Positions 17,642 to 20,333 of a stretch of DNA of 64,000 nt are shown here, piece after piece. Source of the DNA: Saccostrea cucullata (taxonomy: Eukaryota); the NCBI RefSeq assembly GCF_032062105.1, contig NW_026938676.1:1-64000 (forward strand), written 5' to 3'. The notes under the pieces are model-generated. The model worked only from the letters and a program-made list of their open reading frames with translations, ran no database searches and was not told the origin of the DNA. How positions within the stretch are numbered: position 1 is the stretch's first letter; each line of letters opens with the position of its first letter. A program made the translations under genes and the position numbers.

Positions 17642-20333
17642 ATGGATTTCGAAATGTGGTTTTGGATGTCAGTGTTCATCTTTATTTATTTCTTGAATAC
17701 AGTGACAGCTTACACGGGAACAAGTAAATATCCTTACACTTTCATTAAGAATAATCTGTGTGTTATTGTGAGTGGAACTCATAATCAGGCAACGCACTTT
17801 GAAAAGATCTTTTTTTTTCAAAGTGCGTTTTAACTTGGACCCAAATTCAAAGCGTGTAATTTTGTAACGTGCGTTGTAACAAAGACACCTTTTCTTGTAT
17901 CGTCTTAGTTAGTTTGAATGAAGTCACGTGCCACAACGTACAGAACATATATTCAGTCTCAGGAGAAGTAGCCTTCAATGTAGAATGGAGTGGAGAGAAA
18001 ATTACAAGGGACTGCAGAATCATCTTCCAACCATCACCAGCAAACCAGAAAACTTGTATTGAGGTGGTTACTTACCAAGTCAGGGACTGCGATGTTCAGC
18101 TGACGTATTCTACGTACAGTGAGGGAGAGAACCCGGATACGGTACGTTATTACCTTCACCAGCAAATGTTTGACGTGGCTAAAATAATATTTGTAAAAAG
18201 ACTCCATTATATTTACTAACATTGTTTTATTTTCAAGGTAGTTGAAAACCTTTTATTCTGAAATTTATCTATCTGAACTCTGCGAAAAGTTTTTATAGTA
18301 ATGACTATAATTATACTCAGTATGATATTCAACTTGCCTTTAAAAGAACTTTTCTTCAATTTTTCAAGGTTTCCTATTCATGTAAAACTCCACCCACACA
18401 GTTCTGTGGTGACAGGAAAAATGTGGCGGTACAACTTACCCTCAAAAATCCCTCTAATTTAATCAATAACAGTTTCCGTTTAAAGACAACAACCACAACA
18501 TCTAGCACACTTTCTAAATGTAAGTAGTCATCAAATTCTACGAAAAACTTCAAAAGACAGAGCTAAAAAATGTTTTAAGTATATCATAGATGATGAACAA
18601 GTATACCACCTGCAAAGCAAGCTTTTGACAAATAAGCTGATGAAACAAGAATTTGAGCAGTTTCGCTTAAAGTCATCATTTCCCAAGTTCTATGATCGAT
18701 ACAATGACCTTATCAGCAAATACAGCTGTATATGCAATCTTTCATTACTTAAAATGTTGAACAACGTTTTTCATGTTAATTACCAAGCCACTTTTGCACA
18801 GTTAATTGAAATACGGATTTTTCCGTTGGTTCCTCGACAAAAGGAGCATTTGTGTGGCCGGTCGGCTGGAGTGCTTACTTTTCCATTATGAAAGCACTTT
18901 ATCCTACCATGGTTAAGAGGTCCATGTTTGCTCTGTTTCTGTACTATAATGATTAAATGGACTTTAGAATTGGAACATTATTTGGAGACCAGGTATTCCA
19001 ACAATCTATTAGGCTCCAATTGCGCTCCGTTATTAGCAGACCTATTTTTCTATTCATATGAAGTAGAATTTGTGCAAAATCTTATGCGTGAAAAGAATAA
19101 AACACTTGCTGTGGCCTTCAACTCGACATTTAGATATATCGATGACGTATTGTCAATTAACAATGGTAATTTCAATTCCTTATCCTGGTGAGCTTGAGAT
19201 GATAGATACCACAGAATCCGACACATCTGTTACATACTTGGATATTTTTCTTTAAAAAGACGTTAATGGTAATATAACAACGAAGCTATATGATAAACGT
19301 TATGACTTTAACTTTTCTATCGTCAACTTCCCTTACTTATGCAGCAATATACCTTCATCACCTGCATACGGAGTCTTTATATCTCAGTTGATTAGATACG
19401 CAAGAACATGCTCTACGTATGAACAATTCCTAAAAAGAGGTAAATTATTGACAAGCAAGTTGATGAAACAAGAATATCAACAGTCTCGTTTAAAGTCATC
19501 ATTTCGTAAGGTCTATGGTCGATACAATGACCTTGTCAACAAATACAATTTATCATTGAGTCAAATGCTGGCTGACGTTTTTCATACTAATTGTTAGTCC
19601 ATTATTTATACACTGAATTGACGACGGATTTTTCCATTATTTCCCGATCATGACATGGAGCACACGGCGGGTGTGACCGGTTAGCAGGGGATGCTCACTC
19701 CTCCATGGCACCTGATCCCACCTCTGATGTTTCGGAGGTCCGTGTTTGCTCTGCTCCTATTTTGTATTGTTTTATGGACTTTGAGATTGAATACTGTTCA
19801 TTAACTTCATATCTTTCGTTATCTTCATATTTAACTTCATTCCATGTATTTAACCTTAGATTTAATGGTTGTTTGTTGTTGTACATGTTGTAGTCTTAAA
19901 AACATTTCTGTTCTTCAGCTTCAACAATGACAGCGGTTGGAGTTGGAATTGGCGTTGCAGTCGTCATGTTGATTATGTTGTTTCTTATATATCGCAGACG
20001 ACACGCCATTGCACTTGCCGTAAGAAGCAGAACTGCAGGAACACAACATTTGATGACATCAGATACAGACGGTAAAAAGGATTGGTTTATTTTACATTTA
20101 CATTATGTTCATTGCTTTCTATACTGTAAAAGTTAATATCAGTAATACAGATTTACATATTTATATATAATTATATCTTCTTCATTAAGTCACTAATAAT
20201 CATTCCTAGTAATACCTTACTTTTTTCTCAGTGGTTCTTAATGTCATTCTTTTAGAGTTTTGTCGTTAATTATAGATTCCCCCGTGTGACATTTTATTCA
20301 GGAATCTACGCTCCTACCACGACAGCGGAGTAA
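17642..20333 (+). CDS. Type-I membrane protein, 216 aa: signal peptide, 6-Cys (CUB-like?) ectodomain, Thr/Ser stalk, TM helix, short Tyr-containing tail
   Basis: Exons 17642-17723, 17909-18141, 18369-18519, 19919-20071 and 20302-20333 join in frame (651 nt) with canonical splice sites. TM VGVGIGVAVVMLIMLFLIY followed by RRR; ends GIYAPTTTAE*. Confidence 0.75.
18595..18945 (+). mobile_element. Older Penelope-like 3' fragment, tandem to the next copy
   Basis: LTNKLMKQEFEQFRLKSSFPKFYDRYNDL plus a degenerate 3' motif. Confidence 0.7.
19009..19830 (+). mobile_element. Penelope-like (Naiad-type) retroelement fragment: C-terminal RT/thumb and 3' region
   Basis: GSNCAPLLADLFFYSYE, FRYIDDVLSINN, YLDI, FSIVNFPYLCSNIP..AYGVFISQLIRYAR; the ORF ends after the thumb with no C-terminal GIY-YIG; frameshifted. 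Confidence 0.85.

Follow-up and report, generated by a model that had tools for sequence, protein, structure and literature searches.

A conserved pseudoknotted RNA motif with palindromic arms in Naiad retroelements: a candidate self-cleaving RNA

Introduction

The first 64,000 nucleotides (nt) of contig NW_026938676.1 of Saccostrea cucullata (RefSeq assembly GCF_032062105.1, forward strand), hereafter the window, carry fragments of a Penelope-like retroelement (PLE), most of which share one sequence of ~95 nt near the 3' end. What kind of RNA does this sequence encode? An original prediction, made from the sequence without database searches, described it as a structured, non-hammerhead RNA forming the 3' end of a PLE of the Naiad type, and proposed either an uncharacterised ribozyme or an RNA domain that recruits the reverse transcriptase (RT).

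Naiads dominate bivalve genomes, and the natural self-cleaving ribozymes recognised to date fall into only about ten classes. The hallmarks of Naiads are an N-terminal GIY-YIG domain, the CxC and DKA motifs, and tandem copies with pseudo-long terminal repeats (pLTRs) (PMC8557442). Portions of that article report no canonical hammerhead in Naiads and describe the selenocysteine insertion sequence (SECIS) as the sole 3' structure, and the terms ‘twister’, ‘ribozyme’ and ‘palindrom’ each occur 0 times in its supplement file 1 (PMC8557442).

Here we report a conserved pseudoknotted RNA motif of ~50 bases in the 3' untranslated region (UTR) and pLTR of Naiads, with a fold that is apparently undescribed so far. 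Covariation, invariant bases and a self-complementary arm define the motif, and its distribution on the RT tree is interleaved with that of a twister-like fold. We lean towards the reading that the motif is a self-cleaving RNA.

Results

Covariation defines a pseudoknotted fold

Relatives were gathered by protein similarity only. Of 120 listed homologues, 28 were aligned with the element's own C-terminus; this alignment served for the locus search, and the best 80 of 443 confirmed metagenome loci together with 33 from genome assemblies gave 113 loci (L numbers). The motif is found on the sense strand in 23 of these, 13-198 nt past the RT end; carriers were first recognised by eye and by the pairing pattern. 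Near-duplicate or decayed members (L074, L079, L081, L101, L124 and L133) were left out before counting, and L077 and L122 had their anchors corrected manually. The resulting set of 18 families, 17 relatives and the element's own, with RTs 43-66% identical, underlies all family counts below; feature positions are collected in Table 1.

The best-supported helix is the pseudoknot X/X' (GGGAU/AUCCC), which had been offered as an alternative pairing and is in fact the main helix. It comprises 4-5 base pairs (bp) and is tied through one invariant G to a second helix, P2 (GGGUG/CACCU). Of its 90 cells 85 are paired, as against 54 on average and at most 66 in column shuffles, and each of the 5 pairs has changed on both sides. 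P2 is paired in 89/90 cells and has changed on both sides at 3 of its 5 pairs; the fourth pair varies between U-A, G-C and A-U, and the first is G-U in 14 families, G-C in 2, C-G in 1 and U-U in 1. Not one of 20,000 column shuffles reached the values for the pseudoknot, P2 or the palindrome described below (83/90). This statistic ignores relatedness, but slid controls paired in 38-52% of cells versus 96.7% for the true pairing, and this, with the variety of pair types, makes chance unlikely. Covariation across diverged families, on which the predicted structured RNA hinged, is real, so the conservation is not a product of 5'-truncation bias.

The predicted outer stem, P1, is present in the sequence and recurs in most families (Table 1); its summed length was 122, against a mean of 78 and a maximum of 88 at control offsets, although the automatically chosen partners differ from those picked by eye in L069, L078, L084, L123, L132 and L144. 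Other parts of the predicted architecture fared less evenly. The hairpin ACCUCUGA/UCGGAGGU is there in the sequence but is variable and missing from several distant families. From the proposed irregular arm GGGUG/CACCU survives as P2, while AGGGG/CUCCU (47/90 cells) and CCGG/CC(NN)GG (28/72) do not. The copy near 8860 keeps all 8 hairpin pairs with the help of G-U, as had been claimed, but its G-U pairs and the differences at NN are single-copy substitutions; AU prevails at NN among 100 listed genome matches.

The bases common to all 18 families cluster in the single strands and the linker (Table 1); L081, one of the excluded copies, breaks the invariance of GCU (it reads ACAUAC) and of the linker G. 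The folding energy of the single sequence is not unusual (z -0.79), so the evidence for the fold is covariation and not stability, and core identity lies modestly above that of the flanks (45-76% versus 30-60%). The expectation that no described family would match was borne out: Rfam 15 gave 0 matches in the window, focused Rfam scans of three copies at E<=10 gave chance hits only and no ribozyme family, and in a scan of 20 loci at E<=1 no hit fell on the motif. A literature search found no description of the motif; Repbase, Dfam, ZWD, the 26 HRIMA motifs (supplements of PMC10085705), Weinberg 2015 and the supplementary figures of Craig et al. lay outside its scope and could hold it.

Palindromes suggest that two copies pair

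GGGUG is followed by a palindrome of 8-10 nt (palindrome A; UGACCGGUCA in intact copies), which was not included in the motif search pattern. It is paired in 83/90 cells (shuffles 41, maximum 57), its central 4 nt are self-complementary in 18/18 families although they form ten different words, and a Watson-Crick palindrome of at least 6 nt is present in 17/18 (shuffles: mean 2.8, maximum 11). Predicted duplex energies range from -9.4 to -18.1 kcal/mol versus 0 to -0.7 for the hairpin. Since the four bases that would form the loop of a hairpin are self-complementary in every family, intermolecular pairing is indicated, and palindrome A likely pairs two copies of the RNA into a dimer. Palindrome B is a feature of the close relatives. 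The distant sub-type lacks it: none of its 7 families has one longer than 4 nt. In PLE hammerheads, stem III is palindromic and it is the dimer that cleaves (PMC6765202).

A twister-like fold in sister Naiads

At 25 of the 113 loci, descriptors found another 3' motif, which has twister features together with one or two palindromes (descriptor noise on shuffled passes: 3 and 8.7 hits each). Its T1 and T2 pairings covary, and P1 is replaced by one or two covarying palindromes; twister tolerates the loss of P1 (PMC5408937). The alignment of the L105 copy to the Rfam Twister-P5 model spans the model in full, with E 0.018 and a score of 20.3 bits, below the 37.6 cut-off.

The two motif types interleave on the RT tree. 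In a careful tree of 34 rows, built without L176 and L145, 3 changes of type occur in all 200 bootstrap trees, and a single clade for the pseudoknot motif is rejected by the approximately unbiased test (p-AU 0.019). The twister carriers L075, L080 and L164 fall among carriers of the pseudoknot motif, and in the element's own clade of a quick 96-row tree, the 19 loci with sufficient flank comprise 15 with the pseudoknot motif, 3 with the twister-like fold and 1 with neither. No single element with both was found among the 113 loci, several of which have short 3' flanks. The occurrence of a twister-like fold in the same region of sister Naiads raises the ribozyme reading above the RT-recruiting one; pistol, hatchet and twister sister were themselves discovered via a location shared with known ribozymes (PMC10085705). 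A Twister-P5 model search of the S. cucullata genome found none among 80 scored of 15,759 candidates and is uninformative.

A separate conserved element lies ~20-50 nt past the 3' end, that is, at the start of the next unit, and is common to carriers of both motif types (L061-L065, L067, L069 and L072; L075 and L148). It is a candidate RT-binding or promoter element, and would be a better candidate for RT binding than the motif; in a Poseidon element an RT-binding role has been placed downstream of the pLTR (PMC11167929). In L062 it could pair, as judged by eye, with a stretch ~150 nt further downstream.

Further structures were seen in Naiad 3' regions. A third conserved motif type, in L143, L146, L129, L139 and L140, lies ~50-150 nt past the stop and has nested stems with likely loop-tail pairing; an Rfam scan of the L143 copy gave no match. 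By eye, a fourth type is common to the 3' UTRs of L110, L121, L125 and L154. SECIS elements follow the open reading frame (ORF) above the cut-off in L155, L156 and L091 and below it in L103, L150, L105 and L099, which extends the published clam and spider cases to several more Naiad families.

The host element and its copies

The host element is a Naiad, as predicted. In a search with the RT C-terminus, four open frames of 1027 amino acids (aa) were found among 150 scored of 55,527 candidates. These intact copies hold GIY-YIG, CxC, DKA and RT in that order in one ORF, with GIY-YIG at 159-247 (above cut-off) and RVT_1 at 732-878 (below cut-off), and their translations show SCSCS, the CxC linker motif, as well as DKA. 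Domain order and motifs are thus shared with the Naiad clade (Craig et al. 2021, PMC8557442). Partial tandems have pLTRs of 834 bp and 560 bp and a unit of 3,314 nt, and the scattered 5' ends of copies fit Naiad 5' truncation. Being in the 3' UTR, the motif also lies in the upstream pLTR.

In the window, the motif was correctly placed at 19657-19752 (+), 72 nt past the stop codon of a decayed RT fragment. The claim of about ten repeats agrees with BLAST, which found 13 window stretches overlapping the motif: 5 score well with the core model (E 1e-9 to 1e-5) and the remaining 8 are decayed remnants. The S. cucullata genome holds 6,242 core-pattern matches (control 0), and a 33-nt part of the motif is matched without mismatch at 2,711 places; these copies form one family, and the differences among them are decay. 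The motif was not, as had been thought, the 3' end of the element: counted from the first G of GGGUG, 58 of 59 aligned copies end between +141 and +174, most of them sharply at +146 to +158, ~70 nt beyond the motif, which is therefore not the element's terminus.

Viral contigs were searched and held no Naiad locus. The 33 Naiad RT loci from genome assemblies (L147-L179) sit in stretches of prokaryotic assemblies, most likely as host contamination.

Table 1. Positions of the motif, its copies and related features. Counts refer to the 18 families; positions without a locus name are in the window
Feature	Position	Strand	Basis or remark
Outer stem P1, 5' strand (partner 19740-19751)	19658..19667	+	Helix of at least 5 bp starting at -2 in 15/18 families
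Single unpaired base between P1 and P2; putative cut site 1	19668	+	C 11, U 6, G 1 of 18
P2, 5' strand (GGGUG)	19669..19673	+	Pairing counts
Palindrome A (one C>U here); predicted intermolecular helix	19674..19683	+	Covariation
Conserved single strand SCA(G)	19684..19687	+	CA in 18/18
Pseudoknot strand X (GGGAU)	19688..19692	+	85/90 cells
Conserved strand GCUYA(C/A); candidate catalytic strand	19693..19698	+	G, C, U, A each 18/18
Palindrome B (CCAUGG; UCCGGA in most close relatives)	19703..19708	+	6-nt Watson-Crick palindrome in 10/11 close families
P2, 3' strand (CACCU)	19709..19713	+	Pairing counts
Linker G joining P2 to pseudoknot	19714	+	18/18
Pseudoknot strand X' (AUCCC)	19715..19719	+	Pairing counts
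Peripheral hairpin P4, variable or optional, missing from several distant families	19720..19739	+	18-family alignment
Outer stem P1, 3' strand	19740..19751	+	Fold and helix-length test
Core copy	19666-19724	+	Core model
Second near-intact core copy	3531..3589	-	49.9 bits; 50/51 identical to intact copy
Core copy, palindrome destroyed	8869..8927	+	Core model and alignment
Core copy, linker G>A, P4 hairpin damaged	22429..22488	+	Core model and alignment
Core copy broken off past X' (pseudoknot)	39548..39606	-	Core model and alignment
5'-truncated, decayed Naiad copy (RT C-terminal part and 3' UTR)	18955..19819	+	Aligned to intact family copy, -714 to +150 relative to 19669; frameshifts, stops
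Stop codon of Naiad ORF (…VFHTNC*)	19595..19597	+	Sequence; intact copies share C-terminus
Twister-P5-like fold, examples (others occur)	L075:3412, L080:3229, L105:2172-2239, L099:3614, L103:4877, L115:3373, L155:1061, L160:4631, L175:4623		
Downstream conserved element	L062:4727-4753	-	
Downstream conserved element, further loci	L067:167, L069:1629, L072:1947, L075:121, L148:114		

Other features of the window

Two C1q-domain exons lie at 1126-1563 and 12189-12659 (+). An element of the long interspersed nuclear element (LINE) type at 32507-35940 (+) has an open RT frame of 951 aa (RVT_1), and a 354-aa coiled-coil frame is located upstream of it (27911-28975, +); tandem repeats at ~29060-29310 and ~31925-32170 are common to both regions. 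The window also holds a DUF3504 fragment (36403-36855, +), which we take to be a piece of a Crypton-type tyrosine recombinase.

Discussion

A putative self-cleaving RNA

We consider it probable, by a modest measure, that the motif is a self-cleaving RNA. The grounds are good circumstantial ones: a conserved pseudoknotted core with invariant single-stranded bases, a covarying palindromic arm like that of PLE hammerheads, and a twister-like fold in the corresponding region of sister elements. More tentatively, it may represent a structurally new class among natural self-cleaving ribozymes, a strand-swapped dimer present in thousands of copies in animal genomes. The motif and the palindrome-armed twister would then be two of several interchangeable ribozymes in a slot that Naiads were thought to leave empty, a suggestion we hold with the same reserve.

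In such a ribozyme the palindrome would form a duplex with its counterpart in a second copy, which could be a separate RNA molecule or the other pLTR within one tandem transcript, and the partners would exchange the stretch between the palindrome centres. CA, GCU-A and the linker G may form the active site. Candidate cuts are 19668/19669, at the unpaired base before P2, and 19673/19674, at the G-N step that precedes the palindrome core. Read-through RNA from tandems would thereby be trimmed to unit length, as proposed for the hammerheads of other PLEs.

Several observations weigh against cleavage. Poly(A) RNA-seq (3 unstranded runs from one study) showed no pile-up of ends at the motif; 76-79% of reads continue into other sequence, and coverage fades toward the 5' end. 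In 30 upstream pLTRs the 5' ends are spread from -1325 to +166 and mark no cut site. A sample of 100 copies had 5 of its 40 junctions at +5 to +8 (p ~0.01 after correction). This hint was not borne out by a second sample, with 8 of 53 at +5 by hand tally and a corrected p of 0.32; chance matches to A/T-rich flanks favour the +5 place. The pairing counts of P2 (89/90) and X (85/90) are biased upward because family members were initially chosen by pairing pattern and by eye. The comparison with the twister-like fold has limits of its own: these neighbours score below the Rfam cut-off and are putative twisters; mutual exclusion may not extend to all carriers, given the short 3' flanks of several; the twister-like fold lies 93-867 nt past the RT end versus 13-198 nt for the pseudoknot motif, so that the ‘same slot’ is approximate; and 65 of 113 loci, many with short flanks, have neither motif. 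Pseudoknots bound by proteins, too, typically have invariant bases in their loops. Finally, some candidates from ribozyme slots have failed to cleave (PMC6765202).

A possible dimerisation or RT element without catalysis

The strongest competitor, which we nevertheless regard as unlikely, is a non-catalytic RNA whose palindrome dimerises the template or joins two pLTR copies while the Naiad protein binds the pseudoknot. On the same account, held no more firmly, the RT would be placed at a start ~70 nt downstream, and a jump that makes partial tandems would be allowed. The fixed 3' end of copies at +146 to +158 agrees with this, as do the many upstream pLTRs that run through the motif uncut and the RNA-seq and junction samples, in which no cut site appears; moreover, a predicted protein dimer and an internal start of reverse transcription have been described for a PLE (PMC11167929). 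Set against these is the observation that close relatives swap the motif for an unrelated twister-like fold yet keep the downstream element.

Relation to known ribozyme classes

The motif fits none of the known classes examined. For hammerheads in any permutation, CUGANGA occurs in 0/18 families on the sense strand, in line with the absence of a hammerhead core in the original prediction, and GAAA in 3/18 with flanks counted; no hammerhead was found on either strand of the motif. It shares with the minimal type I hammerheads of canonical PLEs its place in the pLTR and 3' UTR, a palindromic arm indicating dimers and the tandem arrangement (PMC6765202), but it is pseudoknotted, lacks CUGANGA and a conserved GAAA, and has other invariant bases. 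A twister descriptor (two pseudoknots, L4 loop, N^A cut, GA before T1) finds none at the motif, and neither do the focused Rfam scans. The motif shares with Twister-P5 (RF02684) of sister Naiads the region, the element group, palindrome arms and interleaving on the RT tree; unlike it, it has one pseudoknot and no twister core (N^AA, GA before T1, L4 loop). Twister sister and hatchet have internal-loop cores, the former with no pseudoknot, and a cut between C and A. The motif does not fit them: its pseudoknot covaries, its invariant A is preceded by U in 10 families, C in 7 and A in 1, and Rfam gave no match; SECIS at the motif likewise had no Rfam match.

If the motif does cleave, it could still do so as a rearranged pistol or hepatitis delta virus (HDV) derivative and not as a new class, a variant of the self-cleaving reading that we rate as rather improbable. 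The closest local likeness is to pistol A32-G33-[pseudoknot]-G40-C41. The motif has a purine, often G, before the pseudoknot strand and G-C after it, together with a G-N step beside a helix (PMC4604425, PMC6154101); A-(G)-[pseudoknot strand]-G-C recalls A32, G33, G40 and C41 (PMC6154101), and an invariant G followed by U, A or C precedes the palindrome core. The equivalents of A, G40 and C41 are kept in 18/18 families, but the G33 place is G in only 10/18 and the G42 place is U in 18/18. The strand order differs as well: the pseudoknot partner follows P2, and no P1 loop holds it. The pairing equivalent to pistol P3, which in pistol directly follows G42, forms in 45/72 cells and holds in none of 6 distant families.

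The likeness to HDV noted in the original prediction does not extend to membership. HDV-like ribozymes need P1, P1.1, P2, P3 and P4 with P1 of at least 6 bp, whereas the corresponding P2 helix of the motif has 5 bp, and with 6-12 nt separating GCUYAC from the 3' strand of P2 there is no space for P3, L3 or P1.1. A first pair that is mostly G-U, a G after the P2 helix and an invariant C after the second helix resemble the C75 and G-U pair of HDV (PMC8495972), but the motif has a single pseudoknot and its outer stem lies upstream of the would-be cut. The focused Rfam scans returned no ribozyme family, though the same type of scan found twister in L105.

Expression, DNA-stage and artefactual readings

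A role in expression or at the DNA stage appears improbable, and more so than the pistol or HDV variants: the motif would provide an internal translation start for the downstream ORF or RNA stability, or palindromes in the cDNA would prime the second strand. In tandems the motif does lie ~150 nt upstream of the next ORF, and roles like those of an internal ribosome entry site have been proposed for HDV-like and other ribozymes (PMC6765202, PMC13725137). A translation role alone, however, leaves the palindrome unexplained. As for the DNA stage, the G-U pairs kept in the sense orientation in P2, X and the palindrome ends suit RNA, and junctions at the palindrome have unrelated flanks with no fold-back copies. 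That shared ancestry and 5'-truncation bias merely give apparent 3' conservation is highly improbable: the genome copies are one family differing by decay, the fold z is -0.79 and core identity is little above the flanks, but both-side changes at all 5 pseudoknot pairs, ten palindrome centres and two distant RT clades speak against it, and the column shuffles and slid controls all but refute it.

Implications for Naiad biology

The novelty lies in the fold, which failed every family test, while the likely job would be of a known kind. A new ribozyme fold, if true, would be a notable find. It would also bear on a stated open point, that Naiads are reported without hammerheads yet dominate bivalve genomes. 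Even without cutting, the covarying dimer signal that two unrelated folds have in common suggests that Naiad RNA acts in dimeric form, and this may provide a handle on the origin of pLTR tandems.

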